Origin: Candidatus Latescibacterota bacterium
GTDB lineage: Bacteria; Latescibacterota; UBA2968; GCA-2709665
Reading direction: 5' to 3'
DNA length: 64,000 bases
NCBI GenBank assembly: GCA_963667175.2
Contig: CAXXXF010000006.1
Location: 1 to 64,000, forward strand
In this document: positions 5,050 through 63,359 of the stretch, piece after piece
How positions within the stretch are numbered: position 1 is the stretch's first letter
How the letters are laid out: the number at the start of each line of letters is the position of its first letter
The notes under the pieces: generated by a model
Told to the model about the DNA's origin: nothing
The model's database searches: none
Seen by the model: the letters and a program-made list of their open reading frames with translations, nothing else
Made by a program: the position numbers and the translations under genes

Positions 5050-5138
5050 AACGAACAATACTCAATTCAGCGAAGCGGTTAAAACACACACGGTAAGATG
5101 ACTGCGTCCGCTCCGGTCCAGCTGGAAGTACGTCGCGG
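5050..5138 (-). other. Degenerate attC-like site
   Basis: AACGAAC-AATACT..CAGC...GCTG..AGTA-CGTC; contains family motif GCGAAGCGGTT. Confidence 0.45.
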
Positions 5139-5173
5139 GCGAAGATTCAGCCCTCACCACCGGGCGTACGGAT

Positions 5174-5935
5174 TTACATGATCGGCCTGAACCTGGCCTG
5201 CAGAATCCTCTGGCTCGACGACTCACCGAACGGCACGCCGCAGCCCCGCAGTTCCTCCACGACAGCGTGGTAATCATAACTCAATCTGTGATTTGCCACG
5301 TTCCAATCCTGCCCGTCCCAGCTCACGGTGGCATATCCAATGCGACGGTCCCCATCATACGGAAATCCGACTGAGTCGATGATCGCATACCGCTGACCGC
5401 AAGGTACGCCGAAGGAAGCATAATGGAGGTGTCCCGCTACAATAAGATTTGCCTTCACACTCCCGAGCAGTACCCTAGCCTCTTCCTCTGGCGTCACGGT
5501 CAGAAGTCCGAAGGGGTCCGGATCGAGGACCAGTACGCCGGTCACGTCGGCAGGCGTCGCGTGCACGATGAGTAGATCGTCGTCGGGAGACGTGCCGCCC
5601 GGCGGGGTTATCCTGTGCTCGAAGGGCAAACTCTTCAGATAGCTCAAGCCATCGGACCCCAGTTTCTCTCTGACCCAATCCGCGCCGTCGTCCGAATACC
5701 CTTCATCATAGACGAACAAATCCGCATTGCCGTAAACCGCGGGAATGCAAAGATCTCGAATCATGTCCAGGCTCTCGGTCGGTCGGGGTCCGTTCAGCAC
5801 CAGATCTCCGGCGACCACCAGACTGTCAATCCGTTGTCTCTGCAGGTCCTCGAGAACGGCGTCGAGCGCAGCGGCGTTTCCGTGAATATCTGCGATCACC
5901 GCGACCGTATATAACTGGCGATTATTCTTTGACAT
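5174..5935 (-). CDS. Metallophosphoesterase
   Basis: DIHGN, GDLV, GNAD and GHLH motifs. Confidence 0.92.
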   Translation of the reverse strand: MSKNNRQLYTVAVIADIHGNAAALDAVLEDLQRQRIDSLVVAGDLVLNGPRPTESLDMIRDLCIPAVYGNADLFVYDEGYSDDGADWVREKLGSDGLSYLKSLPFEHRITPPGGTSPDDDLLIVHATPADVTGVLVLDPDPFGLLTVTPEEEARVLLGSVKANLIVAGHLHYASFGVPCGQRYAIIDSVGFPYDGDRRIGYATVSWDGQDWNVANHRLSYDYHAVVEELRGCGVPFGESSSQRILQARFRPIM

Positions 5936-6503
5936 ATAGAGATCTTTGTACCCGCTTCAAATCATACGCGAATTGGTACAGTTCACCGAAATCCACGGAT
6001 TCCGGGCCGAACAACTCCGGGGCATGAGTGAAATGAACGGCCCGAACTTCGACAATTTTGCTGTGTGGATCCGGATCAGACCTGTCCTCGGTATTTCGGA
6101 CCACGTTCGCCCACGATACGACACGCACGTGCGCCGGATGCGGGATGTGGGGCGGCCTGGGGCGGTCGTTTCGAGAGACACAGTGATACATCCCGATCGG
6201 ATGAAGATTCTCCGGAACGCAGCCGGTCTCCTCCATCAATTCGCGACGGCCGGCCTCCTCCCAGCTCTCGCCGGGCTGGACGGTGCCTCCCGGCAGGACC
6301 CATTTCCCGTTGGACCGCCTGGTCATGAGACAATGCGTTTCCGATACGAACGGAATGACATAAGACGAGCCGCAAACGGTCGACGCCAGATCTTCATCGA
6401 ACCTGCGGAAGTGGACACCGGGACGAAGTTGTCCCTTCTCCCCGCTGAGTACGGGGTATTTCGAGATCAATTGATCGAAATGCGCAGAGTCCACGTTCAG
6501 CAT
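5922..6503 (-). CDS. NUDIX hydrolase
   Basis: PGGTVQPGESWEEAGRRELMEETG; overlaps downstream gene. Confidence 0.9.
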   Translation of the reverse strand: MLNVDSAHFDQLISKYPVLSGEKGQLRPGVHFRRFDEDLASTVCGSSYVIPFVSETHCLMTRRSNGKWVLPGGTVQPGESWEEAGRRELMEETGCVPENLHPIGMYHCVSRNDRPRPPHIPHPAHVRVVSWANVVRNTEDRSDPDPHSKIVEVRAVHFTHAPELFGPESVDFGELYQFAYDLKRVQRSLYVKE

Positions 6504-6582
6504 GTGTCTGGTTTTCCTGCTCGCGTCGTATGATGACCGGGCCGTCTGTTACTCGCCCCGGTTGGCCGGGCGGCACATCCGT

Positions 6583-6955
6583 ATCACTCCCCCCTTTTGG
6601 GGGAGTCGCAGAAGCCGAGCCGGTCCCTGAGCTTTCGTTACCTGAGCCTGTCTAAGGATCGAGGGGCCGGCGACGGCTGATGCGGTGGGGGGATCTCAAC
6701 GCCTTACCGTGTCAAGGCAGCGTGAATTAACCTCGATTTGAAATTTTCCGGGAACGTTAATTCGAATATACGCAAGTAAATAAAGGCGATTTGACTTCGG
6801 ATTTCCAGGAACCTTCAGGTCACCGGACGTGAACGGAAAGGATGTCCCTTCGGACGCCCATTTCGGCCCGTTTTGAAAGGCTTCGTCGCGGCTCCGCGTT
6901 GCTGTTTTCTTCGAATTAAGGTTAATAGATCCGCAATTTGAGTCGAAGCCTTACT
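6583..6955. repeat. Composite palindromic repeat copy 1 (TCACTCCCCC..GGGGGAGT family), interrupted by MITE
   Basis: Colinear with 7806-7957. Confidence 0.8.
6727..6925. mobile_element. MITE copy 1 (~200 bp)
   Basis: Terminal inverted repeats TTAACCTCGATTTG...CGAATTAAGGTTAA; 5 copies in window. Confidence 0.85.
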
Positions 6956-6963
6956 GTAACATT

Positions 6964-7656
6964 CTAATCGGCATTCGCGATCGAAGCGATCGCCGAAGGC
7001 AGTTCTTCCAAGTCGGAAATTGTCTCGTCCGGGAGTTCATCCGGCACACGAGGTTCCAGCGCCGCGTACCTGCCTTGCCTCATCCATACGGTCCGGAGAC
7101 CTACCTGCTTCGCCGGGATGATATCGTTGTCGAGGCGATCGCCGATCATAATCGCCTCCGAAGGCGCAAATCCCGCCCGGTCAAGTATTGTGCGGAAGAA
7201 TCGCTCATCCGGCTTCTTGATCCCGAGGCTGCCTGACACGTCCGTATGGCGAAACCATCGCAATACACCAAGATCGTCCAGGACGTCGACGATGTCCGCC
7301 GGCGCGTTGCCGGCCAGCGCGAGCGTGTATTCTCCAGCCAAGCGTTTGAGAACCACATCGGCCCCGGGATACAGCCTGGAACCGAGTGCCTGGATCTCCG
7401 GGTAATGCGATCGCACGTCTTTGGTGATCTCGTTGAACAGGCGCGTGTCAGGCCTGGAAAAATGCCACGTGATGGCGTGCATGGCGCTTGGAACGAACTG
7501 CGATATCTTCTCGCTGTCCAACTGTTTGTACTCTTCAATGGACAACTCAAAGCCGAAGTTGCCAAGCGTGGTTCGATGCGCCTCCATCAACGCATCCTGT
7601 TGACCGACGGCATCGAGAAGGGTCTCTCCGATATCGAACAACAGCACCGAAATCAT
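6964..7656 (-). CDS. HAD-family hydrolase
   Basis: FDIGETL, KPD and GDRLDND motifs. Confidence 0.92.
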   Translation of the reverse strand: MISVLLFDIGETLLDAVGQQDALMEAHRTTLGNFGFELSIEEYKQLDSEKISQFVPSAMHAITWHFSRPDTRLFNEITKDVRSHYPEIQALGSRLYPGADVVLKRLAGEYTLALAGNAPADIVDVLDDLGVLRWFRHTDVSGSLGIKKPDERFFRTILDRAGFAPSEAIMIGDRLDNDIIPAKQVGLRTVWMRQGRYAALEPRVPDELPDETISDLEELPSAIASIANAD

Positions 7657-7694
7657 GCGAATCTCACACTGATCTACAAAAGACGCAGCGCGAC

Positions 7695-7799
7695 GTCGTC
7701 AGGCGCCATTCGCTCGTTCCAATCACCAGTACCTGGCGCGGCCTCGCTTTACTGAGCCGCAACCAAACAGGTGCAATTGAAAACGCGCGCCCGTTCGAT
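7695..7799 (-). other. Degenerate attC-like site
   Basis: Arms CGTT-CCAAT-CACC / GGTG-CA-ATTG-AAAACG, ending GTTCGAT. Confidence 0.45.
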
Positions 7800-7805
7800 G
7801 GACCA

Positions 7806-7957
7806 ATCACTCCCCCTTGAGGGGGAGTCGCAGAAGCCGAGCCGATCCCTGAGCTTGTCGAAGGGCCGGCGACGGCTGATGCGGTGGGGGGATTCTAACG
7901 ACTTACCGTCCGCAAGTAGCGTGAATTGACATGTACGCATTTTGCATAGAAGTCACA
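7806..7957. repeat. Composite palindromic repeat copy 2
   Basis: Similar to 6583-6955; includes CCCTGAGCTTGTCGAAGGG unit. Confidence 0.8.
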
Positions 7958-8932
7958 CTATAAGTGTCTAAAGGAGGTTAACACGGCGTCCCATGCGAGT
8001 TCGGAAGCGATAAATCCGATATCGAATTCATCCAGGGTTTTCGTCTTGACTTCATTTGTGGTGACGGCATACAGGATATCGCCGTCATATTGGGTATGAA
8101 AGGGCTGAATCGCCTTCGACATGGAGCTATGTACCTGTTTGGACAACTGATGTAAGGATCCTGAATCCATCTGCCGGTTGGTGACGACCAACGTCAAGGT
8201 CGTGTTTTCGCGAGAAGGTTTGCGCTTTGTCGATCGGGCGGACCTGCGTTCAGCCCGATCCCGTATATGAACGCGGTTTCCTGTCTTGGGATCCCGATTC
8301 CCCCTGACGACCTGCCCCTGGCGGTCGACAATCGAGCCGAGTGCATTCACGACGGTAAATACAGCTATTTTCGTACGTCCGATCTGTCGAAAGGCGGCGC
8401 CCTGTCCGGATGATTCCCGAACGCCCAGTCCGGATCCGCCGCCCACGTTGGCCGAACGACCTGATCCGCGTGCACCGAGTGGAAAGACGCCGGTACGGGC
8501 TGCTCTCAGGGCGGCACGACCTAGTTTCATATCCGGATAGATGGCGTTGTTCCGCCCTCTCCAATCCCAGATAATAGCTCCTGAAACGAGGGGAATATTC
8601 TCCCAGTTGATGGAATAATTCTGCATCGCGAGAAGTTCGGCGCGCACGCCGAGGGTTGCTTCAAGGCCGTAAAGCGAGCCGCCGGCAAAGCAAATGGCGT
8701 GGTACCAGCCATATCCCGTCTCAATGGCGCCAACGCTGCCCCCTCGAATATCGACAGCCGTGGAAACCCCTTTCGGGAAGTCGAATACGGTACAACCGGT
8801 TGGACCCTCTTCATACTCAGCGATACCGACCTTCATGTCCGGAAAGTTGAACTCGAGGGTTGGACCGTCAAAGTCGGTCTTTGGATTCAACTGCACGGTA
8901 TCATGTGAGACCAGTTTTGTTCGCTTTGCCAT
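7958..8932 (-). CDS. P1/S58 family peptidase (DmpA-like)
   Basis: TGCTV, AGGSLYGL, VVNALG, ENTTL and PFHTQYDGD motifs. Confidence 0.9.
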   Translation of the reverse strand: MAKRTKLVSHDTVQLNPKTDFDGPTLEFNFPDMKVGIAEYEEGPTGCTVFDFPKGVSTAVDIRGGSVGAIETGYGWYHAICFAGGSLYGLEATLGVRAELLAMQNYSINWENIPLVSGAIIWDWRGRNNAIYPDMKLGRAALRAARTGVFPLGARGSGRSANVGGGSGLGVRESSGQGAAFRQIGRTKIAVFTVVNALGSIVDRQGQVVRGNRDPKTGNRVHIRDRAERRSARSTKRKPSRENTTLTLVVTNRQMDSGSLHQLSKQVHSSMSKAIQPFHTQYDGDILYAVTTNEVKTKTLDEFDIGFIASELAWDAVLTSFRHL

Positions 8933-8935
8933 TGC

Positions 8936-10279
8936 TCATTCCAGTTTGGAATCGGTTGTCGCCAGGCTGGCGCAGACCAGCTCCTCGTCGTTGCGGACGA
9001 AAACGTGTTTATAGGCGAACGCGGGATGCGCCCATGTGACGCCGCCGCGACGATTCAACTGATCGCGCGTCGGTTCGATCAGTTTCGCGCGACTGATGAC
9101 ATTCAACCCGTCCGGCGAAAGCGTCGTAATCAGGAGTTCACCGCGCTCATTGAACATCCAGACCCTGTCGCCGTTCCTGATGAAATGGATATTGCTCCAG
9201 CGGGCTTTGGGTACCGCTGTCAGGTCTTCCCAGATCCGTTCGCCGTTGCGGGCATCGAGGCAGCGGAGTTCCCCGTAACTGTCCACACCGTAGATGAAAT
9301 TGCCCAATCGGACCGGAGTCGACATCGTTGAATGGAGGGCATCCGTGTTTCTCTCGTCCTTGCCCTTACGGTGCCACCCGAATTGCATCTCCGGCTTATC
9401 CGGATTCACCTTCAGCAGCAACGATCCATCGAAGAAATCCGTAAAAAACAACTCGTTGCGATAAAAAACCGGGGATGCGATGCCGATCTCCATGCGTTTC
9501 GGCGGAAAAGGATGGCGCCAGTACACGCCGCCGGTCGTCGGGTTGAGGCCGACGATACTCTCGGCCGTCCGACAGACCAGGACGCGATTATTGCCCTGCG
9601 TAATCGCAATCGGCGCCGAGTAAGATGCCTTGTCGTCCAGCGCCTTCCATTTCTCAACGCCGGTTTCGCGGTCGAATGCGACGATGCTGGCGCCTGGCGT
9701 ACCGCCGGCCTGGACGATTACGTTTGATCCTTCAACGATCGGCGCGCTTGCAATGCCCCAGGTCGGCATCGCGATATTGTATTCGGAGTTCAGGTCTCTC
9801 TTCCACTTCAATGCGCCTGTGGCCGCGTCGAAGCAATGAAGATGGCCCATCGCGCCAAGGGCGTACGCCAGGCCGTTTTGAACGGTAACCGTCGCGCGGG
9901 GTCCCGCGACATAATTGATTCTGTACTCGCAGTCGTACGCATAGGACCAGATCAGTTCACCCGTTTCCCATGCAAAACAGTGGACCCGCTCGATCTGTTT
10001 CGGTTTCGCGAGACGGTCCGTCACGTAGACGCGGCCGTTGGCAACGCTCGGGCCGCTATAGCCGCTGCCGATCGGCGCCCGCCAGCGGACCGGGATCTCC
10101 GGGCCGTCGAACGCTTCGATGATTCCGATCTCTCGCCAGACACCGTCCCTGGCCGGTCCCCGCCACTGCGGCCATTCATCGGCCGCGATCGAAGAGATGG
10201 GGATCAACACCGCCAACATCATTGCCGCAAATCTCAATTGAATCACTCTTCTGCTTCGACATGTCAGTTGTTCCGGCAC
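8936..10279 (-). CDS. Secreted PQQ-like beta-propeller repeat protein
   Basis: Signal peptide, WPQWRGP, repeated xxDxxTGxxxW. Confidence 0.9.
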   Translation of the reverse strand: MPEQLTCRSRRVIQLRFAAMMLAVLIPISSIAADEWPQWRGPARDGVWREIGIIEAFDGPEIPVRWRAPIGSGYSGPSVANGRVYVTDRLAKPKQIERVHCFAWETGELIWSYAYDCEYRINYVAGPRATVTVQNGLAYALGAMGHLHCFDAATGALKWKRDLNSEYNIAMPTWGIASAPIVEGSNVIVQAGGTPGASIVAFDRETGVEKWKALDDKASYSAPIAITQGNNRVLVCRTAESIVGLNPTTGGVYWRHPFPPKRMEIGIASPVFYRNELFFTDFFDGSLLLKVNPDKPEMQFGWHRKGKDERNTDALHSTMSTPVRLGNFIYGVDSYGELRCLDARNGERIWEDLTAVPKARWSNIHFIRNGDRVWMFNERGELLITTLSPDGLNVISRAKLIEPTRDQLNRRGGVTWAHPAFAYKHVFVRNDEELVCASLATTDSKLE

Positions 10280-10328
10280 GTAAATCTCCTTGAGATATAG
10301 ACACTTCCGGCGTTTGCAGCAGCCGCGA

Positions 10329-10472
10329 GCCTGACGGGTCCGAGCGACCTCGTTTCGGCAATGTGATCGAAACTCTCTATTACGAACTCCAGCCCGATCA
10401 TCACAACTTTCTATTGGGGCGCGTTACAGTCTCTGACCTATATCGATTCGGTTGCCATCGGGACCGGCAGCG
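10329..10472 (-). other. Degenerate attC-like site
   Basis: GCCTGAC-GGGTCC-GA-GCGACC ... GGTTGC-CA-TC-GGGACC-GGCAG. Confidence 0.45.
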
Positions 10473-10691
10473 AAATGGCACGAGAAACACAAAACATATC
10501 CGGCGCGAAACACAAGACCATGCCGTTTCGCTATCGAAGGGGCGGATGCCGGAAGCATTTCAGCGTCATAGTTGGTAGAGGTCGCCAAGACATTGTTCGT
10601 GGGCGACCCCCACAGGTGAAATCGGGTAAGGAGAAACAATCAAAGAAGGAATTCGAGGCGTGGCTGAGGCCGCGGTAGGCAGAGGAAGGGT

Positions 10692-10931
10692 TTACTCAAA
10701 GGCGTCTAATCTTGCTTCGTTTTTGGCAATACGTTCGCCGAAGGAATCCAGGCGGGCGTCAATTTTCTCGAAACGACTGTTCATATTGTCTTCGAGTCTG
10801 TCTATCCGCTGGGTGAGTCTATCTTCAAGTCTGGTGTTAAGTGTCCAAACAGTGCCCCACACTAGGCCTGTAAGGGCCACCAGAAAGGTGAGCATTTGGA
10901 AGTAATCATTTCTGAGAATTTTCTGCAACAT
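10692..10931 (-). CDS. Small membrane-anchored coiled-coil protein
   Basis: One hydrophobic helix then heptad RLED/RIDRLE repeats; GGGA RBS. Confidence 0.7.
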   Translation of the reverse strand: MLQKILRNDYFQMLTFLVALTGLVWGTVWTLNTRLEDRLTQRIDRLEDNMNSRFEKIDARLDSFGERIAKNEARLDAFE

Positions 10932-11094
10932 GGCATATTTCCCAGGTGCTATTTAATGAAAAAGTATACAGGTTTTCAAGTCTTGTCAAGGCCAAATAAA
11001 AAACTTGCGAGAGATTGACGTGTGGCTGAAGCGGCGGTAGGCGACTGATTTTAAGAGGGTTTTTTCTGCTGGGCTGCTTATGCCACATTTCTGG

Positions 11095-11267
11095 ATAATC
11101 TCCTTTTTCAGGATCACAAAACCAACCGGACTCCCATTCTCGAACGTCTTGCACATTCCCAATATGGAAGTGTAGAATGCGACGGATTTCTCAATATTGC
11201 TGCCTCGAATCCCGGGCGCCATACGCCCGAACTCGACTGAATCGGGGAAATTCGACGAATTGCCCAT
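11095..11267 (-). pseudogene. 5' fragment of VOC/glyoxalase gene
   Basis: NIEKSVAFYTSILG..FENGSPVGFVILKK, then breaks off. Confidence 0.7.
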
Positions 11268-11326
11268 GGGCTCTGTCTCCTTCGATGACCACACGTCCGG
11301 AACCGAGGCAGTGCTCGGATCGATGA

Positions 11327-11413
11327 TCAGGCTGAGTGCTTCGCCGCCAGATGACGAATCAGATGTCCCAGGTGCGTGTCACTGATGTGGACGAAATGCA
11401 GTGGATCGGCCAT
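11327..11413 (-). pseudogene. 5' fragment of metallophosphoesterase
   Basis: GGAGGA RBS then MADPLHFVHISDTHLG only. Confidence 0.7.
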
Positions 11414-11499
11414 GTCTTCCTCCATTACCGGTTGTTGGGATCCGTTGATCTGTCTATGCGGGCGCGCTACGATCCGGGCTACCGGAGATCGCCCCGGTC

Positions 11500-12564
11500 T
11501 CAGAGCGCTGCGGTCGTCTCGTTCAAAGACCGGAGCAGCCTTCGTACTTCGGTTCCGAATGAGGGTCCGCCGTTTCCGATGGCCTTTCGCGCATTCATTG
11601 TCCAGATGAGTTCCTGCACGGTGTAAAGGAGATGGACCGATTCCCACGACGGCCCGTCAAGTCCCCTCGTACGCAGGTACTCGCCCCAAAAAGCCTCTCT
11701 GAACGCCGAAAAATCGCTTCGATATCGCCAAAGCTCCCCTCCCCACTCACCGAAGTTGAACTCGAGGACCGGATTTCCGATACCCGCGTTTCCCCAATCC
11801 AGGATTCCGGTGACTTCCAGATCCACGTCTGATCGGACCAGAATCTGATCCTCGTGAATATCCCCATGAAGTACAACGTCCTCCATCGCGGCAAGCGCTC
11901 CAAATGCCCGCTGCCATTTTTCGTAACTCGCTGCGGAATTCAACGCTCCGAATTCCTCCGTGCTACCTTCGGCAGCCAATTCCCGGATCGACGACGCGAC
12001 CGAGTCCGGTGCGCTTCCCAGGGTACCCGATTCGAGCGCCCCGTAAAGCCATCGATACGAGTCGCCATGATCGCCGTCGACGTCGTGAGACTGTGGTTTC
12101 AGGAAGTCAGTTTCGGGACCCAATGGCAGGTTGTGCCAGACTCCGGCGAGTCGTCCGACGGCGCAAATCACATTTCCATAGTCGGTCGTACTGCACGCAT
12201 GTTCGATCCTCCCAAGCAGCACCCCCTGCAGTCGCGTGACAACGCCGAACCTATACGGGCTCATCTCGCGGTTTTCGACCGATTCGACAAGCCTGGGAAC
12301 CGGCAATCCGTTCAGTCCGTTCAACAGTTCATATACTGCAAGCTCTAAATCCAGCGAACGCTGGTACCTGGGATGCCGTGGAAACAGAAACGCGCGATCA
12401 CGGGACTTGATCACGTGCTTCGACCATCCGGTAAAATCGGTTTCAAGCTCACCGGGTGTCAGCCCGAACGCTTCACATAAACGATCGAGTTGAGGCTTGA
12501 TCAATACGGCTTCGAGTGCTTTAGAGTCTGCCACGATGCGGTGATCCCGGAAGATCAGCGTCAT
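11500..12564 (-). CDS. APH/choline-kinase-like phosphotransferase
   Basis: HGDIHEDQI and GILDWG motifs. Confidence 0.88.
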   Translation of the reverse strand: MTLIFRDHRIVADSKALEAVLIKPQLDRLCEAFGLTPGELETDFTGWSKHVIKSRDRAFLFPRHPRYQRSLDLELAVYELLNGLNGLPVPRLVESVENREMSPYRFGVVTRLQGVLLGRIEHACSTTDYGNVICAVGRLAGVWHNLPLGPETDFLKPQSHDVDGDHGDSYRWLYGALESGTLGSAPDSVASSIRELAAEGSTEEFGALNSAASYEKWQRAFGALAAMEDVVLHGDIHEDQILVRSDVDLEVTGILDWGNAGIGNPVLEFNFGEWGGELWRYRSDFSAFREAFWGEYLRTRGLDGPSWESVHLLYTVQELIWTMNARKAIGNGGPSFGTEVRRLLRSLNETTAAL

Positions 12565-12654
12565 AGATACCTTGCAGGTTCAGTTGATACAGTCGGCGAA
12601 TGTGCCAGGGTTTGACTCGTTCGGAGGGCATATCGGACCTGAACCGAGGGATAC

Positions 12655-12877
12655 TTAACCTTGATTCGTAGTTCTTCGGGAACGTTAATTCGAATAAACG
12701 CAGGTGAATAAAGGCGATTTGACGTCGGATTTCCACGAACCTTCAGGTCACTGGACGTGAACGGAATAAACATCCTTTCGGACGACCATTTCGGTCCGTT
12801 TCGCAGCGATACCCTTTGTGCCTTTTTGTGCTTTTTGTGGCGAATTTAGCGGTTGTCTTTTTTAGAATTGAGGTTAA
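12655..12877. mobile_element. MITE copy 2 (long variant with TTTGTGC tract)
   Basis: Same TIRs and core as copy 1. Confidence 0.85.
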
Positions 12878-12880
12878 TCT

Positions 12881-13693: not shown

Positions 13694-13771
13694 GGCGGCG
13701 CCCACGTCGACTGGTTGGGTTTTGGGTTCAAGCTGATTAGTGAACGCTGATAGTTGCTCTTGCTCCGCTTC

Positions 13772-14010
13772 CTCCCCCTCTCCCCCTGGGAGAGGGGGTT
13801 GGGGGGAGAGGTCGCGAAAAGGCGGTGAGACGTAAGCCGTGTGACGGTAGATGAAAGACCTGAAAACGGTGAGACGTAAGCCGTTAGACGGTAGAGGATT
13901 ACGTTACCACAATGTTTTCACGTTAACCGTGCCTGTTTTTTTTCTGTTATTGTAACGACAAGAAAAACCATTGGGCATTCATTTCCTCTCCCCTCTTACG
14001 TCTCCGCTCT
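13772..14010. repeat. Short-repeat cluster: CCCTCTCCC palindrome plus GAGACGTAAG repeats with an inverted copy
   Basis: CGGTGAGACGTAAGCCGT twice; CTTACGTCTC at ~13995. Confidence 0.7.
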
Positions 14011-14729: not shown

Positions 14730-14765
14730 GAAATCATCTCCTCACTGCGTATACGCGTTGGCACA

Positions 14766-55094: not shown

Positions 55095-55169
55095 TTTAGA
55101 CCAATTGCAAGCTTTCGAGTTCTCGCAGGACTATGTCTCGCCCCGCCTCCGCTGTCTTGGCAGAAAACT

Positions 55170-55320
55170 TGATAACGCGCCCGCCAATTGAGTCTGCGAT
55201 ACACGACAGAGGATCAGTATACCGCGGTCGCTCCAAACCCCCGTTGCATCGCGTTTGTCGATCCGGGTTGGGATATTGGAAAGGCTGGCAGTCATGCCAA
55301 AGACGCGCCATTCGTTGTCA
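55170..55320 (-). other. attC-like site
   Basis: CTTGATAAC-GCGC...GCGC-CATTC-GTTGTCAAG. Confidence 0.5.
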
Positions 55321-55414
55321 AGAAGGACCGAGGGGCACATGCACCGAAGTGCAAAACCGATGTTCTACGCCGTCCCCATTCACGCTGGCAGTTGTCTGGT
55401 CGTAGGGTAGTTGC

Positions 55415-56056
55415 TCACAGTGCGGGAGCAGTAGAGTCCTTCAGAGGCACCACCCAAACGACGAAATTCTCATAGAATAGCATTCGAAAGACGGGTTCTT
55501 CCATCTCTTCTGAGGGCGGCAAGACATTATACAGAAACACCATCTGGTTCTCACCGTGGGAAGGAAGTGGCGGGCAATTCTCTTTAGCCCATCGCATCAA
55601 CAGCCCGTATTCGTCCTCGCTCATATCTGCCGCGACCAGATTCGGAGTCATAATAATCAAGTCTCGATTCCATGGTTTACCGAACTCATGGAAGTGTAGT
55701 CCATAGGCGATCTTTTTCATTGTACGGTTGAAACGCTCGCGGTTGATCTCAAACGCCCTTGTAGTTCCTTCTGGGATTTCGACTCTCTGTGTCGTGCCAA
55801 GCGTTGTTTTTGCAAGACCCAGGCTGTCTTTCAGCGAATCCACGGTCCTATCAATGAACTGCTTAAACCCTGTTGCATTGTTCCCAATGCACATGGCGAT
55901 GATGTTCCGCACGTATTCATCGTCCTTGGATGTATCCTCATTGTGAACGGAGCACGATCGAACCGTAATCAACTGCCTTCGGTACGAACCTTCGTCAGGA
56001 AAGAAGCATTTTGCTGGTACGTGCTCTCTCGATGTAGCACTGGCTCGCCATGTCAT
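55415..56056 (-). CDS. HNH-like endonuclease-family protein
   Basis: SREHVPAKCFF..LITVRSCSVHN..SKDDEY. Confidence 0.7.
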   Translation of the reverse strand: MTWRASATSREHVPAKCFFPDEGSYRRQLITVRSCSVHNEDTSKDDEYVRNIIAMCIGNNATGFKQFIDRTVDSLKDSLGLAKTTLGTTQRVEIPEGTTRAFEINRERFNRTMKKIAYGLHFHEFGKPWNRDLIIMTPNLVAADMSEDEYGLLMRWAKENCPPLPSHGENQMVFLYNVLPPSEEMEEPVFRMLFYENFVVWVVPLKDSTAPAL

Positions 56057-56115
56057 TTCACTCTCGTATGTATTCGCTGGTCGGACAAAAGTCGCGTAGG
56101 CAGGATTTATGCGAA

Positions 56116-56206
56116 GGTTGACGTGGGAATGCCTGAAGCCGCGCGGACGACGTTATACGCCGACAGCCCCCTTCGCGCAAAACGAATGAGGGCTGCCACG
56201 TCACTG
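56116..56206 (-). other. Degenerate attC-like site
   Basis: GGTTGAC-GTGG..CCT...AGG..CCAC-GTCAC. Confidence 0.4.
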
Positions 56207-56322
56207 GCGTACGATCGCCTCTTCTTTCTTCAACGCTACCGATGTTTTCTATATTAATTTTTCCAAAAGGCGATGACTGAGCGGCAGTTGCGTCGCGAAA
56301 CGCCAATATCTGCAGAAGCCCA

Positions 56323-57027
56323 TTACCCCTCGTATTGAGCAGGTGGCTCAAGTAGCCTGAGTTGGGAGACCTCGCGACCCATTCGTCTGGCAGCGCCGTG
56401 GAATGAATTCTGTTCGACGTCCTCATTGCCCCATTGATCCCAACCCCCCCTTACAAAGCGAGCGAAGAGCTCCAAATAGGGCCCAGGTGAACACGCTTCA
56501 ATGATGTCATAAATCTCGTCCGGCTTGCGTGAGTGCTCACGCTTTCTGGTAGGGACCAGATTCACCTGGGTCCTACCCGCGGGAAGCGTCCGCATCGAGC
56601 CGCGAACACCGAAAAGAACCAACTCAGTGACATTCCTGAAATAAAAGCCGACGCCCCGCCCATCGGGGCCTCCATCCTTGCGGATTTTGTACCAGACAAT
56701 ATTCGTCTTGTACGTAAATCCCCATGTCTTCATCACTTCCAAGCCCCAGGCCAATAACGCGTTAGGAACCCATAGATATAGGTGAGAATCCTTACCCGTT
56801 AACTGCGGCACAGGCAGCTCGCAGATTTCATCCAATGTCATTGTCGGATAGCGCATTAACCGCTGATGTTCCGGAGCCACCTTGCCGGTACGATTCTGAA
56901 ATCTCCACGGAGGGTCCGCCAATATCGTTGTGTACGGTCCGCTTGCTTTTGACGCCAGGTCCTGCGAAGCCGTCGGTCGCGGGATATTAACAATCTTCGT
57001 CAAAGAGCGGCTCCTTTGTACGTCCAC
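56323..57027 (-). CDS. MT-A70 family adenine methyltransferase
   Basis: ADPPW, LYLWVPN, EHSRKP and YLELFAR motifs. Confidence 0.93.
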   Translation of the reverse strand: MDVQRSRSLTKIVNIPRPTASQDLASKASGPYTTILADPPWRFQNRTGKVAPEHQRLMRYPTMTLDEICELPVPQLTGKDSHLYLWVPNALLAWGLEVMKTWGFTYKTNIVWYKIRKDGGPDGRGVGFYFRNVTELVLFGVRGSMRTLPAGRTQVNLVPTRKREHSRKPDEIYDIIEACSPGPYLELFARFVRGGWDQWGNEDVEQNSFHGAARRMGREVSQLRLLEPPAQYEG

Positions 57028-57240
57028 TCATCACGAAATTCGCTCTCAAGAATCGCGGATGCATGGCGCCATTCATGAATCTCGTAATTGCTGCGAATCG
57101 CGTCTGGAAAGTGTTCTATAGGCATGGTAGAAAGATAAGCCTCAGTGCGCGTCGTCGCAAGATTTCGTTAAGAACGATCGGACGACGAAGACACGGGTTT
57201 TCGTTCCGCATCTACAAGATATACCAACCTGAAATATTCA

Positions 57241-59216
57241 GTGCGCCGTGAAAAGGCGCGGAACTTCAGTGGGTGAGAGTCCCACCCGACAAGTGTTGCC
57301 ACAGTCGGTAGCAATCGGAGCGGGGACGTAGGAAACGACATCTCCGAAGCCTCCGGTGTAGAGGGTCGCAAGGCGACTTGGCGAGTATGCGGGCCGAAAC
57401 GTGAGTGAACGCTGCGCAGGCCTCGAAAAGGGTAATGCGGGAGCCGACCCGCCTGAATTTCGGGGAAGGCCGCCGTCGTTGGGGAAGCAGGCAACGCGAG
57501 CACCCAACGGTCCCGCCGGGGTAGTGGCGGAGGCACGTATACAAGGAGTTCCGACGCAACACGGGAAGCCCCAGGCGGTGGTGGAGACACCAACCGGCAG
57601 CCCGTGAGGGTCAGGCCGGGCCGCGTGGGGTGGCGGAGAGGCCCGTAGTACCTGAGAAGCCGGGTAATGCCGGCGGAGGAAAGGGGCCTTGGTTCAAGGG
57701 CAACGTCAAAGGAGCGAGAGCCTGGAGATTGGTATGAGCCTAAGACCTCCGGAAAAGGTTCGGAAGTTGCAGAGGACGTTGCATGCCAAAGCGAAGGAAT
57801 CGCCCGGCTACCGATTCTACGCGCTGTATGACAAGGTGTATCGCGAGGACATCCTGCTTTATGCGTACCGCTGCTGCAAGGCCAACGGCGGCGCGGCGGG
57901 CGTGGACGGCGAGACGTTTGCGGATATCGAGTCATATGGGCAAAAGCGGTGGTTAGGCGAACTGTCGGAAGCCGTAAGGAGCAAATCGTATCGGGTGTCT
58001 CCGATCCGTCGGGTGTATATCCCCAAGCCGAACGGGAAGCAAAGGCCGCTGGGCATCCCGACGGTGAAAGATCGGGTGGTGCAAACCGCGGCGATGCTGG
58101 TATTGGAGCCGATCTTTGAGGCGGACCTGCCAGCGGCGCAGTATGCGTACCGTCCGAAACGGAGTGCGCACGACGCCATCAGGGCGGTTCACAGTCTGGT
58201 GAGCCGTGGCCATACGCAGGTGATCGACGCGGACTTGAGCGGTTACTTTGACACGATCCCGCATGCCGAGCTGATGAAATGTGTGGCGCGTCGCATCAGT
58301 GACGGGCGTATGCTGCGCCTGGTCAAGCTGTGGCTGACCGCGCCGATTGAGGAGACCGACAAGCGGGGCCGCAAACGTCGAACGACGCCGAACAAGGATC
58401 AGGGAAGGGGGACACCGCAAGGCGCCCCGATCTCGCCCCTGCTGGCGAACCTGTATATGCGGCGGTTCATTCTGGGATGGCAGGTTCGGGGACATCAGCA
58501 ACGCCTGAAGGCTCATATTGTCAACTACGCGGACGATTTTGTGATCTGCTGTCGCGGCACCGCAAAAGAAGCGATGCGCGCGATGCGATCCATTATGAAG
58601 GCGCTCAAGTTGACGGTGAACGAGCAGAAGACGGGCATATGCACGCTTCCTGAAGGACGATTTGACTTTCTGGGCTACACCATCGAACGCTGTTACTCAC
58701 CAAAGACGGGAAAGGCCTATATCGGCACGCGCCCGTCAAAGAAGGCCATCCGGCACATCTGCCGGGCCATCAGCGAGGCAACGGCGCGGCGGTGGCTGCT
58801 GAAAGACCATCAAGAACGGATTGCCCACCTGAACCGAAAGCTAACAGGGTGGGGCAACTACTTCCGTCTTGGTCCGGTCAGCAAAGCCTACCGGAGTGTG
58901 GACAGCCACACCCGGCAACGGCTCCGCTGGTGGTTGTGCAACAAGTACCGAATACCGGGAAAGGGGACGTCCCGTCTCCCTGACGAGGTCCTCTACAATA
59001 CGTTGGGCCTGACCCGGCTGGAGGTGCAGACGCACAACCTTCCGTGGGCGAACGCATGACTCCTTGTCCGAGAGCCGGATGCGGTAAATCCGCACGTCCG
59101 GTTCGATGAGCGGGACGTGGAAACGGAGCGCGGAGCGGCTATGGAGGCACCGCCAGACGAAAGGGGCGGAAACAGATAGGCCTCTCCTACACCACCGCGC
59201 CACCTCTCGACTCTAC
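57241..59216 (+). mobile_element. Group II intron
   Basis: 5' GTGCG; domain V GAGAGCCGGATGCGGTAAATCCGCACGTCCGGTTC; 3' CTCTAC; putative EBS1 TGAATTT vs exon ATATTCA. Confidence 0.93.
57734..59059 (+). CDS. ltrA: Group II intron reverse transcriptase/maturase (no En domain)
   Basis: RPLGIPTVKDR, GTPQG, YADD, FDFLGY and X-domain GWGNYF. Confidence 0.95.
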   Translation: MSLRPPEKVRKLQRTLHAKAKESPGYRFYALYDKVYREDILLYAYRCCKANGGAAGVDGETFADIESYGQKRWLGELSEAVRSKSYRVSPIRRVYIPKPNGKQRPLGIPTVKDRVVQTAAMLVLEPIFEADLPAAQYAYRPKRSAHDAIRAVHSLVSRGHTQVIDADLSGYFDTIPHAELMKCVARRISDGRMLRLVKLWLTAPIEETDKRGRKRRTTPNKDQGRGTPQGAPISPLLANLYMRRFILGWQVRGHQQRLKAHIVNYADDFVICCRGTAKEAMRAMRSIMKALKLTVNEQKTGICTLPEGRFDFLGYTIERCYSPKTGKAYIGTRPSKKAIRHICRAISEATARRWLLKDHQERIAHLNRKLTGWGNYFRLGPVSKAYRSVDSHTRQRLRWWLCNKYRIPGKGTSRLPDEVLYNTLGLTRLEVQTHNLPWANA

Positions 59217-59392
59217 CGAAAACCGGTGGACTTGTCGTATAATCGATTGATTTTCAATAACATCAGTGGAGAATTTAACGAATTCCATTAAGAGTCCGGA
59301 ATCGGGCTGGCCGGCAAACGTTGGGGTTTCAAGTTGGACGGACTTATCGCTGTTGCTTGCCAGAGTGAGCATTTGCCCTGGCTCCTGGTTTC

Positions 59393-59526
59393 TAATCCTG
59401 CTTAATCCTGCAAATCCTGATCGGTTTTTCTGGTTTTTTTTCGCGTTTTTTCGTGTATTTCGTAGTTTCTGATGTTCGTTTTCTCGTGCTTTTTGGCTTT
59501 CATCCTGTCCATCCTGTCCATCCATG
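59393..59526. repeat. ATCCTG and TTCGYG short-repeat tract
   Basis: Similar to 26777-26843. Confidence 0.7.
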
Positions 59527-59671
59527 TTTGTTCCGTTTCATGGATTAATGGGGACCAAGAGAATCTGGCTTTACAAATCTCATTACAGACGGCGTGGAAT
59601 CAGCAGCCGGCAACCCGACAATGTTTCCAGCGTCATCCTCAGATCGAATGAGGCGCCCGTTTCACTCTGCG

Positions 59672-60298
59672 TCACTTCATCAGGAAGTTCCTGCCATACT
59701 GATACGCGATCTCAAGATTCCTTGCCATGTTGCTCGATGTTGCAAAGTGATCCGCCATACCAGGGAGGAGTGCGAACTCACAATGCTTCACACCCGCATC
59801 AGGGCGGAGGCGATCATGGGTGTATAACCGTCTCATGGCTTCAGCAATTCCAGCCTCTTCCAGACCCTCTAAAGTATTGCCCACCGGACAGAGAACGAGA
59901 GCTCTTTCGACTGAGAGTCGCGGAAACGGATAGGTCTCCATGGCAAACTGGTACTCGTACGCGTATCCGCAGACCCAAACCCGGTCGAACCATCCCTTCA
60001 GCTTTGCCGGACAGTCGCTCCACCAGACGGGAAAGACAAAGGCCAGGCCATCTGCCCTGCCGATCTTGCTGTGTTCCGCCTGCACGTCCGATGGTACGGG
60101 GAGAGTGGAGCGATTGCCCTGAACGTTCATCTCGCGAACGTACTCATCCGGACTCATCTCGCATTTAAAGTCCATTTCATACAAATCGCCGATCTCGTAT
60201 GAATGCCCACCGTCGTCGAGTCCTCGACACAACTCGCCCAGGACCTCCCCGGTGAAAGACCTCCTCGTCGGATGCGCAAAGACAATGTATGCGTGCAT
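59672..60298 (-). CDS. Flavodoxin-fold NAD(P)H oxidoreductase, copy 2
   Basis: Paralog of 53283-53909. Confidence 0.92.
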   Translation of the reverse strand: MHAYIVFAHPTRRSFTGEVLGELCRGLDDGGHSYEIGDLYEMDFKCEMSPDEYVREMNVQGNRSTLPVPSDVQAEHSKIGRADGLAFVFPVWWSDCPAKLKGWFDRVWVCGYAYEYQFAMETYPFPRLSVERALVLCPVGNTLEGLEEAGIAEAMRRLYTHDRLRPDAGVKHCEFALLPGMADHFATSSNMARNLEIAYQYGRNFLMK

Positions 60299-60651
60299 CA
60301 AGGGATCTCCGCCGGCAGCGGTGCAGGCCACGCCGCTGGACAACACGGCGCTGTCTTCGAAAGGAGTCTCAATCAGGCATGCGCCGTCACGACCGGCTGA
60401 AAGTAACCTGACTGTTCAGGTGTATGCCAGGCGATTTTCGAAAATCCGGCGCACTCCAGGGCCCGAGTGAACTCCTTGCGCGGGATTGCCCGGTAGCGGG
60501 TCCTTAGCTCTCTTACTTGCCACCCATTCGGTGCCCGGGTCATAATGAATAACCGAATCAGGCAGGTATCTGATTTCTTCGACCAGTCCCAGACCTGAAA
60601 CGTAATGACCTCGCGCTCCGATGCACCCTGAATGTTCGCGCCCTCAAACGA
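59672..60651. repeat. ~1-kb direct repeat, copy 2
   Basis: Colinear with 53283-54262. Confidence 0.95.
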
Positions 60652-61149
60652 CGGTTTTTCCGCGAGCAGCCGATCGTAATCTCGAATACTGGCAACCAAC
60701 AGTCCATCAGTCGTCATCGTGCGCCTGATGCTTCGGAGAGCGAGAGTCAGGTCTTCGTCAGTCAGGAGATGAGGCAGTGAGTTATCGCAACTGATCACAA
60801 CGTCGAATTTGTGGGCGAAGGCACATTCCACCTCACGAACATCGGCAACGGCGAATTCAATCTTCAGCCCCCGGTCAGCTGCTTCCGATTTCGCCCTTGC
60901 AATCGCCTTCGGGCTTAGATCTGACGCGAAGACTTCGTATCCCTGCCGCGCCAGGCCAATTGCCTGAGTGCCGATTCCACAAGAACAGTCCAGGACAAGG
61001 GATGCATTTACTGACGATTCACGTTGAATCAACCTATCCAATACACACGACTGCCGCTCGATTGCCGATTCCCACTCTGCGTAAACGTGATGGTAATCAG
61101 CAGCCAGGTCATCGTAAAAACGTCTGACGTCTTCGCTCAACGTTGGCAA
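60373..61149 (-). CDS. Class I SAM-dependent methyltransferase
   Basis: VLDCSCGIGTQ and DNSLPHL motifs. Confidence 0.92.
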   Translation of the reverse strand: MPTLSEDVRRFYDDLAADYHHVYAEWESAIERQSCVLDRLIQRESSVNASLVLDCSCGIGTQAIGLARQGYEVFASDLSPKAIARAKSEAADRGLKIEFAVADVREVECAFAHKFDVVISCDNSLPHLLTDEDLTLALRSIRRTMTTDGLLVASIRDYDRLLAEKPSFEGANIQGASEREVITFQVWDWSKKSDTCLIRLFIMTRAPNGWQVRELRTRYRAIPRKEFTRALECAGFSKIAWHTPEQSGYFQPVVTAHA

Positions 61150-61466
61150 CTCCCTCGTGTGACAAGACCATGAAGCGAGAGGAACTCCTTGCGAAGGGAT
61201 GCCTCGGATTCCCGTAGTCGGAACCTGTCCGCATCGGTGACGGCGTCAAGGACAAATGGATGCAAGTCAAGATCAGAAACTTCGGGTACAGCTTCATTCC
61301 GATGAACACTTCCCCACACGTAGACTGAGGCAAGCCGTTCATCGAATACTTCGCAATACACCGAGACGTGGTCCACCACGGCATCTCTGAAGAAGCCATC
61401 CGCGATGGCGTCGAGATTGACAAACCTGTCGAGGTCTTTTACAGCCACGACACCTCCTTCGCGCAC
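61137..61466 (-). pseudogene. Nucleotidyltransferase domain, probably truncated
   Basis: SVYVWGSVHR..SDLDL; runs into next gene. Confidence 0.6.
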
Positions 61467-61508
61467 GGGTCGCTGTCGCGTTTCGGGCGTGACTGACTAT
61501 GCAGGCCG

Positions 61509-62117
61509 CTATTCCGACAGTAACCCTTGCCAGCGATGCCCTTCAGGATACAAGACTTCCAACCCGGCCGCCAACCATCTCTTTGCCTCGGCGGACATCA
61601 GCGGCAGGCACGTTTCAAAGTCCAGATCATCTTTCGAACGAGGATTCCTGGCTTTGTACAGCAGTTGAACCTCAATCCGTATGCAGGGAACATTTCTGTA
61701 TGCGACGATCAAGTCTCTTCGTAGCCCGCCAATCAGTCTGCTGCGTTTGCTGAACCACCTGTCGCCTTCGCTCTCAGTCAACATGATCTGAAGCTGCCAT
61801 GCCTGTATGCCGGTATGACCCCATATGTCATGTATCCCGTAAGGCAGGTACTCTGACTCCGCCCATGGTCGCAATGAGCCGGGTGGATCAGCCGCGTACA
61901 GATGCCAATCCGAGAGCCAGCGCTGTACCTCGAGTTGTTGATCCCGGTACACGATGACGTCAATATCACCGTGGTCCCGTACACGGGTTCCCACGAACTG
62001 CTCTACCGCATGGCCGCCGGCGAGTCCCCACATGAAAGGATCGTTGGCGAACAATTTCGTCAACTCCTTGACGGACAAGGGTTTCCATTGGCTGAAGGGA
62101 ATCTCAGGAGTGGTCAT
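61509..62117 (-). CDS. Nucleotidyltransferase (ANT(2'')/Lnu-like superfamily)
   Basis: LAGGHAVE, RDHGDID and LLYKA..RSKDDLDF. Confidence 0.85.
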   Translation of the reverse strand: MTTPEIPFSQWKPLSVKELTKLFANDPFMWGLAGGHAVEQFVGTRVRDHGDIDVIVYRDQQLEVQRWLSDWHLYAADPPGSLRPWAESEYLPYGIHDIWGHTGIQAWQLQIMLTESEGDRWFSKRSRLIGGLRRDLIVAYRNVPCIRIEVQLLYKARNPRSKDDLDFETCLPLMSAEAKRWLAAGLEVLYPEGHRWQGLLSE

Positions 62118-62147
62118 ACAGGTCGCATTCTGCGCTTAAACGATATC

Positions 62148-62233
62148 CGCTAACGGTCCGGCACCCACGAACCTGCGTAGGGAGGTTGGGCGCAGGTGCG
62201 TGTGCACAGGAGCTGTGGGTACTCGTGTTACGC
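62148..62233 (-). other. attC site (best preserved)
   Basis: Minus strand: R'' GCGTAAC (contains TAA stop)-ACGAG-L'' TACCCACA...L' GTGGGTG-CCGGACC-R' GTTAGCG, 30 bp before next ATG. Confidence 0.8.
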
Positions 62234-63271
62234 GAACGTGAATTCGCCGGATACGCAATCCGGCTCCGTCGAAACCACCTCGGACCATATGGATGCAGTT
62301 TGTTCGAATGACAACTTGAGCTGAGACTTGCGCAGATTCTCATTGAGCAGCCACGAACCGGTTTCACCAGTACGAGCTGCATACCACGTAAAGGCATACA
62401 GGACGTCGCGTTTGTCGTCGAGCTCCGTGATCTCCTCACCCACCGCCAGGCGGGATGGATACGATGTGATGTGCCGCTCCACAACATGGGCGGGAGCGTT
62501 CGCGTATCTTGTTTCTACGTCATCCGCCGTAAGAGAGAACAGACGAACGATGCGACTCGCAATGGCTTCTTCATGGTGTTCGCGAGCCAGCACGCAAAAG
62601 CGAGTGAAAGCCCTTCCAAAGGACCGGTCACCCTGTCCCCATCTCTCCATCAGGCATGGGATTACCAGACGCGCGAGTTCCTGTATAGATATCCCAGCCG
62701 CGATCAGACGACCTGCCTGCAGATGTGACGTTACTCGATGGGCGAGCCGGGTTGCACGTCTGACTCGCTCGATTTGGCGCGCCCGGACAACCGAAGGATC
62801 AAATCGACCATCGGAGAGCCGGACAACGAAAGCAGGAGTATCGCAATCCTCAGACGCGTGAACCGATTGACCGAGATGGCCCTTGTCAGTCGCATGGAAA
62901 ATCCTCTCATTGGCCATCAGCTCATCCAGGTTAAGCTTGCCGTTGATCAAGTCGTCTGCCTCGTCGGCTGTGAAATGAAGCCGACCCGCGTCAACAGAAG
63001 TCGGCCACGAGTCTCGGGCCCACTCCCTTGTGATGGATAACGCAAGCTCGTCCACTCGTTTTGGGAGACCGTTGTCCGCCTCCCTGGTCTTAATGTAGAT
63101 GAGGTCTACATCTGATAGGGGCCAGGCCGTTCCTCGCCCCACGCTACCCCCAACAATCACGCCCGAAACGCCAGGAACAGATGCGATCCGTTCGATGGCT
63201 TCAACGGTTCGCTCCCGAAGAATGAGTTCCCAGTTTTCCAGGTGCCCCTGGAAGAGATCCGCTCTGAACAA
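62228..63271 (-). CDS. Nucleotidyltransferase domain protein
   Basis: GGSVGRG...SDVDL. Confidence 0.82.
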   Translation of the reverse strand: MFRADLFQGHLENWELILRERTVEAIERIASVPGVSGVIVGGSVGRGTAWPLSDVDLIYIKTREADNGLPKRVDELALSITREWARDSWPTSVDAGRLHFTADEADDLINGKLNLDELMANERIFHATDKGHLGQSVHASEDCDTPAFVVRLSDGRFDPSVVRARQIERVRRATRLAHRVTSHLQAGRLIAAGISIQELARLVIPCLMERWGQGDRSFGRAFTRFCVLAREHHEEAIASRIVRLFSLTADDVETRYANAPAHVVERHITSYPSRLAVGEEITELDDKRDVLYAFTWYAARTGETGSWLLNENLRKSQLKLSFEQTASIWSEVVSTEPDCVSGEFTFA

Positions 63272-63285
63272 ATCGAACTCACTTT

Positions 63286-63359
63286 CGCAAACGTCCCCAC
63301 GGTGCCCGAACCGCGAAGCGGTTGCGCGGAGGGCTCAGCCGGGCACGGTCGTATTAGCC
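63286..63359 (-). other. attC-like site
   Basis: CGCAAAC..GTGCCCG-AACCGCGAAGCGGTT...CGGGCAC..TCGT-ATTAGCC. Confidence 0.68.

Follow-up and report, generated by a model that had tools for sequence, protein, structure and literature searches.

A probable family of attC-type sites with an invariant CGAACC centre in an integrase-less cassette array of a Latescibacterota bacterium

Canonical attC sites are recognised by structure, with extrahelical bases on the recombined strand setting polarity, and the integron integrase recombines them at AA|C. They have a variable central region and a length of about 57-141 nt, and in an array one co-oriented site follows each promoterless ORF. Taxon-specific families of them include the VCR of Vibrio and the XCR of Xanthomonas, and the VCRs are near-identical over their whole length. 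The Treponema denticola-type integron has an inverted integron-integrase layout. Clusters of attC sites without an integron integrase (CALIN) were reportedly described by Cury and colleagues in 2016. According to the accessible portions of the papers cited here, a CALIN holds at least two attC sites within 4 kb with no IntI nearby and is thought to be a degraded integron (Neron et al. 2022, PMC9024848), the I2 helix is the key innovation of the integron integrase for attC recognition (Escudero et al. 2016, PMC4792948; 2020, PMC7790495), and attC families specific to taxa are established, with the sites grouping by habitat and not by phylogeny (Ghaly et al. 2021, PMC8352920). The last of these papers modelled 11 taxa, Latescibacterota not among them, and the name Latescibacteria does not occur in the accessible portion of its text. 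In the present study, we analysed the first 64 kb (hereafter the window) of contig CAXXXF010000006.1 (C6) of a Candidatus Latescibacterota bacterium, the genome of which comprises 5.52 Mb in 18 contigs and is 95% complete. An earlier note, made from the letters alone, had listed ten spacers in this window that share a core followed by CGAACC, and had read them as a lineage-specific attC family. We are fairly confident that a family of attC-type sites bounding cassettes has the flagged signature as its invariant centre, and that the array in this genome is without a recombinase, CALIN-like and eroding.

Five sites of the window, all on the + strand, carry this reading. They were scored with covariance models of hand-set structure, named R1 (5 sites), R2 (13 sites) and R3 (64 sites); the structure was set by hand after RNAalifold, run on a MAFFT alignment, settled on another, local pairing that left out the R and L stems. 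The best site of the window lies at 52178..52270 (72.5 bits with R2, 54.5 with R3), 23 nt downstream of the stop codon of the minus-strand open reading frame (ORF) 52293-53219. The site at 41193..41278 (53.9 and 37.0 bits), in bottom-strand orientation, has a consensus 5' half and a partly decayed 3' arm; it lies 28 nt downstream of the stop of ORF 41306-41884 (-), and its single-strand fold gives z -0.05 against shuffles. The site at 46173..46261 (52.2 and 47.2 bits) has the inner hairpin AACCTGCGAAGCAGGTT and a mutated R' core (ATATC), and lies 480 nt downstream of ORF 46741-47658 (-); its predicted fold consists of the L stem and the hairpin junction (z -2.81). The last two are the site at 62146..62234 (31.8 and 44.4 bits), the R'' end of which overlaps the stop of ORF 62228-63271 (-), and a short site with the hairpin AACCGCGAAGCGGTT at 63284..63360 (31.5 and 40.7 bits), 34 nt downstream of the stop of ORF 63394-63948 (-). 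Four of these five sites follow a minus-strand stop codon at a distance of 0-34 nt, and the start of the next gene precedes the site by 13-50 nt. Over the window R2 gave 32 matches at E<=10 with filters off and R3 gave 44, with the same five strong sites at E<=1.3e-8. On sequence grounds we regard it as very probable that these strong sites are attC.

Read along the + strand, which is opposite to the cassette genes and is called the bottom strand by analogy, the 5' half of a site consists of yTAAC|G, a spacer of 6-7 nt and a 7-bp L' arm of variable sequence. The centre follows with CG-AACC, a small hairpin, GGTT, a GCC-GAA-GGC mini-hairpin and a third hairpin, and the 3' half is made of ..AG-C..G, the L'' arm, a spacer of 3-4 nt and GTTAGC. 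The structure statistics were taken from 60 distinct sites of this and related genomes, in an alignment (A6) fitted to the model. Paired cells amount to 89.2% in this alignment, compared with 29-41% when partners are slid, and double changes occur in 20 of the 25 pairs; none of 500 shuffles reached the observed values. In the L helix (helix 2), compensatory changes were found in 7 of 8 pairs, with 92.6% of cells paired and three to five pair types per position, so that the L'/L'' inverted repeats, in this model-fitted alignment, are kept by structure and not by sequence, as is expected of attC sites. The inverted core sites (RYYYAAC/GTTRRRY) are also kept: in the 60 sites the 5' core has T in 57, A in 54, A in 55 and C in all 60, and the 3' core has G in 58, T in 57, T in 56 and A in 56.

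The centre behaves unlike the L helix. Its CGAACC columns hold C28 in 59/60, G29 in 59/60, A30 in 60/60, A in 55/60, C in 54/59 and C in 52/60 sites, with GGTT opposite and the partner T137 in 60/60. The conservation of the CGAACC/GGTT junction and of the GCC-GAA-GGC mini-hairpin is about that of the core boxes TAAC|G and GTTA; there is little variation in the two closing pairs or in the first hairpin stem, and this conserved base of the centre is retained while the sites range from 77 to 159 nt in length. DNA folding of the best sites predicts an R stem, an asymmetric internal loop, an L stem and a three-hairpin junction. The folding energy differs little by strand (mean -18.95 vs -18.12 kcal/mol).

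The sites are confined to one array and one orientation. With six seeds, iterated nhmmer recovered 10 sites at E<1e-3, each of them on the + strand of C6:29.7-101.5 kb, and genome-wide no match better than E 0.3 outside that region. In the genome scan with the model, in which 150 of 3248 first-look candidates were scored, 16 of the 17 hits at E<=1 were on the + strand of C6:41-113 kb, and one weak hit was on another contig, C2. Beyond the window there are 12 more sites, all on the + strand, the last at C6:116818-116898, so that all 17 sites of the genome (5 in the window and 12 beyond) share one strand at E<0.01. CGAACC is exact in 13 of these 17, and the core C is followed by CGAAC at 13-15 nt in 16 of them, the spacing that the earlier note had described. 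By the covariance models, the covariation of the L stem, the co-orientation and the confinement to one array, its view of attC-type sites belonging to one sequence family was borne out. Shorter words are less telling: TGCGAACC has 6 occurrences in the window, all on the + strand, against 2.5 expected by share, a modest enrichment, while the exact AACC.GCGAAGC.GGTT hairpin occurs twice genome-wide, both times in the window. TTTGCGAACC led to more + strand copies at C6:65, 84 and 101 kb.

The other five sites listed in the earlier note are decayed or atypical. Its letters were correct at all ten coordinates, and 29748 and 41195 do have CGCCGGTTTGCGAACC in common; as one family, the ten held for the five strong sites given above and failed for the rest by the covariance models. 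The decayed site at 29746..29839 (+) keeps R', spacer, L' and CGAACC intact over 27 nt, lacks the 3' arm and runs into the end of ORF 29795-30697; it reaches 12.1 bits (E 0.54) with R2 and 12.3 bits with R3, with fold z +0.53, and its nhmmer score is not independent because it served as a seed. The site at 35606..35695 (+) is a divergent, probable member with an 11-bp L stem (GGCTGT(T)CTGCG / CGCAGACAGCC) followed by CGAACC (13.7 bits, E 0.17 with R2; 16.2 bits, E 0.032 with R3). At 23475..23542 (+) is an atypical or degenerate site that keeps the L stem, CGAACC and R'' GTTAGCG, has CGA in place of AAC in the R' core and lacks the inner hairpins. The weak candidates at 34447..34534 (+; CGAAAC variant, R3 13.3 bits, E 0.25) and 37704..37830 (+; CGAGAC variant, R' GCCTGAC, R2 10.6 bits, E 1.5, R3 9.9 bits, noise-level by score) are visibly alike in sequence and make up a longer sub-type of about 125 nt. 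With filters off in the window, 23475 was matched by neither R2 nor R3, and 34449 (the site at 34447) was not matched by R2. The four sites at 35606, 29746, 34447 and 37704 lie in the range of 10-16 bits with R2 and R3, which is noise level by score because minus-strand matches at 1950, 61300 and 27126 reach similar bits. A generic scan for attC-like palindromes (AAC/GAC...GT, at least 6/7 core pairs, constrained DNA folding) found both strands alike, with 59 on the + and 53 on the - strand and 22 vs 20 at a stricter cut, and thus did not point to any further site families. A short hairpin (CTCGGCACCCC..GGAGGTGCCG) with TAAC/GTCAAC-like ends was seen twice, at 33608-33656 and about 42500-42545; one copy scores 17.7 bits with R3, and the hairpin may represent a minimal form of attC-like site that lacks the inner hairpins.

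In addition, we scanned 61 related genomes under stricter filters, with 70 candidates scored per genome. The family was found in 40 of the 61, in 12 of 17 genera and in four families of the class (18/21, 17/31, 2/5 and 2/3 genomes); the hits stand in co-oriented clusters, and scores reach 90 bits in another family of the class. In the genus of the window, 13 of the 14 other members have the sites in addition to this genome. An exact-pattern scan with one genome per species, in which the pattern itself selects for the signature, gave 80 loci among the matches listed; a full model match was found at 42 of these 80 (43 matches), of which at least 36 are Latescibacterota, 3 Poribacteria, 2 Gemmatimonadota and 1 Vicinamibacteria by record title. 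Four genomes of other phyla, scanned whole, contain 2, 7, 5 and 12 sites in co-oriented clusters, some of them on Poribacteria whole-chromosome records. The family is therefore not lineage-specific, contrary to the proposal of the earlier note. The note's further proposal of a homogenisation like that of VCR or XCR is not supported either: constancy is limited to the core boxes and the CGAACC/GGTT/GCC-GAA-GGC junction, and the L arms vary from site to site, with covariation in 7 of 8 pairs. Variable, covarying L arms beside a constant junction point to selection on the junction rather than to recent copying in this lineage. Compared with VCR and XCR, the branched centre is what stays constant here; the near-identity within a species or genus is lacking, and the family spans at least one class of Latescibacterota. 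Like the taxon-specific attC families in the accessible portion of PMC8352920, this is one clade-shared sequence family that a covariance model can capture, and the habitat clustering of attC described there fits the hits in Poribacteria and Gemmatimonadota.

With regard to the recombinase, this genome has three tyrosine recombinase genes, none of the IntI type, and the array is CALIN-like because the genome has no integrase. Sites 62146 and 63284 are 1.1 kb apart, and further pairs occur at C6:84212/85006 and 89367-92724, which is the arrangement of a CALIN when sites are called with our own models. Compared with the described CALIN, the array here exceeds 110 kb and has internal candidate attI remnants; furthermore, the arrays of relatives are not orphan and adjoin a recombinase that a criterion based on IntI would miss. 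A complete integron has an intI gene with the IntI-specific domain beside the array; no such gene is present here, and the array-adjacent genes of the relatives lack the domain. These genes score 181-241 bits with TIGR02249, for which the cut-off is 265, in two stretches that skip profile positions 180-235, and in an alignment with true IntI of the same class they are without the insert of about 41 residues (I2). In PDB they match IntI4 best (2A3V; E 2.8e-43); about 42 residues of its I2 region have no counterpart in them, and the catalytic R, K, HxxR, H and Y region is kept. In a tree of 28 rows, IntI and the I2-less proteins were split from the Xer genes of this genome with 100/100 support; four IntI formed one clade (100/99), and the I2-less proteins formed its sister clade (84/82), mixed with homologues of other phyla. 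Family attC sites lie within 1.5 kb of the I2-less recombinase in 13 of 30 loci, and in one relative (G057) 8 sites per 9 ORFs are followed by a divergent recombinase gene. The likeness to canonical IntI (VchIntIA/IntI4, 2A3V) consists in the closest solved structure, the retained catalytic region and R and L boxes like those of attC; the differences are the absent insert of 41-42 residues, the scores below the cut-off and a site centre that is conserved in sequence.

An element of about 190 bp beside the I2-less gene is a candidate attI, judged from its sequence and position. It has four copies in this genome, all on the + strand and all inside the array: at 47691-47879 of the window and at C6:87209, 106360 (partial) and 117713. 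In three relatives (G011, G013 and G044) the element overlaps the last codons of the I2-less gene, which in G013 is full-length and encodes 333 aa. The copy at C6:87209 still reads the last 14 codons of that gene; the window copy at 47691..47879 (+), a decayed candidate attI with a degenerate trace of the 3' end of the recombinase gene, is 75.8% identical to it over 149 nt. Conservation among the copies begins at yTAAC, the place expected of the cassette junction, and the layout is TAAC|T-N-CGAAC followed by an inverted repeat. The same layout in quite different sequences stands at the 5' side of the recombinase gene in G016 and G057. TAAC-N9-12-CGAAC occurs 17 times in 30 recombinase loci, compared with about 1.7 expected from genome background, at 14 distinct sites in 11 genomes. 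The copies of this genome are decayed, as CGGAC, CGAAA or CGAAT stands in place of CGAAC, and no promoter or terminator was detected when the candidate attI copy was scanned. The recombinase gene co-directed with the cassettes and the candidate attI after its 3' end in G011, G013 and G044 resemble the inverted layout of the Treponema denticola type; unlike that layout, G016 and G057 have the usual divergent arrangement, and the enzyme here is without I2.

We give CGAACC an even chance of being a sequence-specific recognition element of the recombinase. Such a role is the best explanation of a motif that is fixed beside a covarying stem and recurs at a like distance in the candidate attI, next to an enzyme without I2. 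CGAACC stacked on the L stem would form the inner half of the binding site of the second recombinase monomer, and may do the job of the extrahelical bases and the I2 helix of canonical integrons. In attC, the L stem and the first hairpin would stack and so present CGAAC(C) as a duplex. Hairpins with a GAA loop and a C-G closing pair are unusually stable in DNA, and the GAA-looped hairpins of the centre might favour folding of the + strand as single-stranded DNA. From sequence comparison we tentatively propose, at somewhat less than an even chance, that Latescibacterota and some co-resident Poribacteria and Gemmatimonadota have an integron-like capture system run by a sister of IntI that never had I2, and that this enzyme would read CGAAC(C) 10-15 nt from the TAAC crossover in both attI and folded attC. 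In the genome studied here the system is dead, with its enzyme absent and most sites eroded.

Several observations weigh against this explanation of the signature. In this genome, 95% complete, there is neither an IntI over the TIGR02249 cut-off nor an I2-less recombinase, and no recombinase remnant was found at the syntenic array head (C6:117-122 kb). In the relatives, the I2-less recombinase occurs in 19 of 61 genomes, often broken, compared with sites in 40 of 61, and a search of the site-bearing Poribacteria and Gemmatimonadota genomes did not find it. Its family is very large, as 7894 of 8000 scored candidates were at E<=1e-20, with homologues in Dehalococcoidia, Clostridia and Ignavibacteriales among them, and one relative (G020) has 6 identical copies (two groups by score); with such size and copy number, the I2-less recombinase could be a mobile bystander. 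Another (G017) has three identical copies, each just downstream of, or apart from, a true IntI gene, and the identical copies in both genomes suggest that some I2-less members travel on a repeated mobile unit. With respect to the sites themselves, the covariation counts were obtained from a model-fitted alignment, which biases them towards the structure; single-sequence folds are mostly no better than shuffles (z -2.8 to +0.5); and only 5 to 11 of about 58 gene junctions in the window have a site (5 good and about 6 decayed). Only 10 of 60 sites have an extrahelical (bulged) base in L'', so that the canonical extrahelical-base rule cannot be asserted for the family. The spacers are asymmetric (6-7 nt between R' and L', 3-4 nt between L'' and R''), and this asymmetry differs from the geometry of canonical attC.

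The most serious alternative is that these are ordinary attC sites served by a canonical IntI, which was lost here or acts in trans, that the I2-less genes are mobile bystanders, and that CGAACC reflects the common descent of the cassette pool. It would be in keeping with the true IntI genes over the cut-off in 6 of the 61 relatives and a broken one in a Poribacteria genome, with the size of the I2-less family and its multiple copies in some genomes, with the absence of the I2-less gene from most site-holding genomes, and with the other mobile DNA that the arrays of this genome attract (an insertion sequence and a group II intron, each with at least ten genomic copies). Nevertheless we consider it rather unlikely. 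At 8 true-IntI loci of relatives, searched with filters off, there was no significant family site and only one match of 11.8 bits (E 0.55), against the 13 of 30 I2-less loci with sites; in the genus of the window, IntI over the cut-off is found in none of 15 genomes, and the sites in nearly all. In addition, the 14 distinct occurrences of TAAC-N-CGAAC beside the recombinase are spread over both ends of the gene and over diverged sequences, and common descent alone gives no account of compensating L arms beside an invariant junction.

A very improbable reading is that the sites are palindromes like repetitive extragenic palindromic (REP) sequences or bacterial interspersed mosaic elements, or transcription terminators, and not recombination sites. 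They are indeed intergenic imperfect palindromes 3' of genes, and GC-rich DNA has hairpins on both strands, as the counts of 59 and 53 given above illustrate. Dispersal of this kind, which the earlier note had named as the finding that would overturn its reading, was looked for genome-wide by model and nhmmer; the sites are confined to one region and one strand, and the reading stands. The true dispersed repeats of the window behave otherwise, and for that reason the family is not a REP. One of them, about 140-220 bp long and beginning ...GGGAACGTTAATTCGAATA..., lies at 6732-6873, 12660-12880, 14801-15016, 24337-24477 and 24604-24746 and has 57 BLAST hits on 10 contigs; it looks REP-like or like a miniature inverted-repeat transposable element, and is unrelated to the attC family. 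The other, a C-rich/G-rich hairpin (CCCCCTTTTGGGGG...) at 6570-6720 and 7806-7909, has 52 BLAST hits on 14 contigs. Furthermore, the RYYYAAC and GTTRRRY ends are conserved, no T-run was found at the sites, the sites adjoin tyrosine recombinases in relatives, and the blocks of homology with a congener are gene-sized and shuffled. Chance resemblance among unrelated spacers would suit the five listed sites that score at noise level and the abundance of 7-8-mers (GCGAACC alone occurs 1408 times in the genome). For the five strong sites chance is excluded by the model scores, since full-length matches reach 31-88 bits with E down to 1e-24, and up to 90 bits elsewhere in the class; for the family as a whole we give it hardly any credence.

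The array that these sites punctuate begins at the contig end and extends over more than 110 kb, to about C6:117 kb. In the window, a run of cassette-like genes lies at 5174..63948, nearly throughout on the minus strand by ORFs and Pfam, with GNAT, methyltransferase, APH, NUDIX, metallophosphatase, flavodoxin-like, ankyrin and Fic/Doc matches and a DUF4160/DUF2442 pair; such mixed small enzymes are a gene content typical of cassette arrays. The GC content per 2 kb of the window is 0.52-0.62, and that of whole contigs 0.575-0.622. The array-head remnants (candidate attI copies) split the array into sub-arrays, and its genes are promoterless. Compared with the congener G011, the chromosomal flank (C6:122171-130000) is collinear with 81.7% identity, and the first 33 kb of the window are roughly collinear with 77-90% identity and few sites in either genome; the region of C6 at 61-106 kb shares gene-sized blocks with 88-98% identity in shuffled order, and the homology breaks at site 62146..62234. 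Such a pattern would be expected if the distal part is old and the part closer to the array head has been exchanging recently. Two flavodoxin-like (Flavodoxin_2) paralogues, at 53283-53957 and 59672-60346, both match one G011 gene with 86% identity, so that a cassette may have been duplicated inside the array. One G011 block is likewise present in duplicate, at C6:97388-98369 and 105315-106363, with 97-98% identity.

Other mobile DNA is present inside the array. An insertion sequence with an rve-type transposase (ORF 20199-21437) is located at 19900-21500 (+) and has at least 14 near-full genomic copies, a second of which is within the array at C6:109103-110722. A complete group II intron, recognised by Rfam D1-D4 and D5/D6 matches and a reverse transcriptase/maturase ORF (57689-59059), occupies 57241-59216 (+), on the strand opposite to the cassette genes and 3' of a stem-loop; its insertion point is no family attC site, and it has at least 10 full-length genomic copies (94-99.9% identical) as well as many related 5' and 3' ends. 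Twenty public sequencing runs hold part of 41001-51000, and none holds half of the sampled words. The seven DNA-labelled runs with a share of at least 0.2 are sponge metagenomes or plain metagenomes, and the sponge-labelled runs hold near-identical pieces of the array. Contigs of four runs are short pieces with two joints (40730 to 41946; 42445 to 47891), neither at a family site and each seen in one contig with a shorter side of only 29-30 letters. Contig ends are often located in the repeated candidate attI and at a palindrome near 42747-42787; since assembly breaks at repeats would look alike, no conclusion is drawn from these ends. Three public runs, each of a different study, have contigs that stop at this palindrome (42735-42811), namely at 42747 and 42784-42787. 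The palindrome resembles in part the spacer at 13706-13760 and may be another repeat.

In the literature, as surveyed by titles and abstract beginnings, no study of integrons in Latescibacterota or in sponge symbionts came up, and listings of the same kind showed none on I2-less integrases beside attC arrays. Taken alone, the window has the more modest meaning of an eroding, integrase-less cassette array of an already known kind, and with its relatives it extends integron-type arrays to Latescibacterota. The prevailing view is that attC is read by shape with the help of the I2 helix, and arrays without IntI are filed as dead remnants. CGAACC offers a concrete, mutable target, and the I2-less protein a concrete enzyme, for the question of whether cassette capture works without I2. 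If the proposal is true, single-strand cassette recombination would have no need for I2, and many of the 'orphan' CALIN arrays would have an unrecognised integrase.

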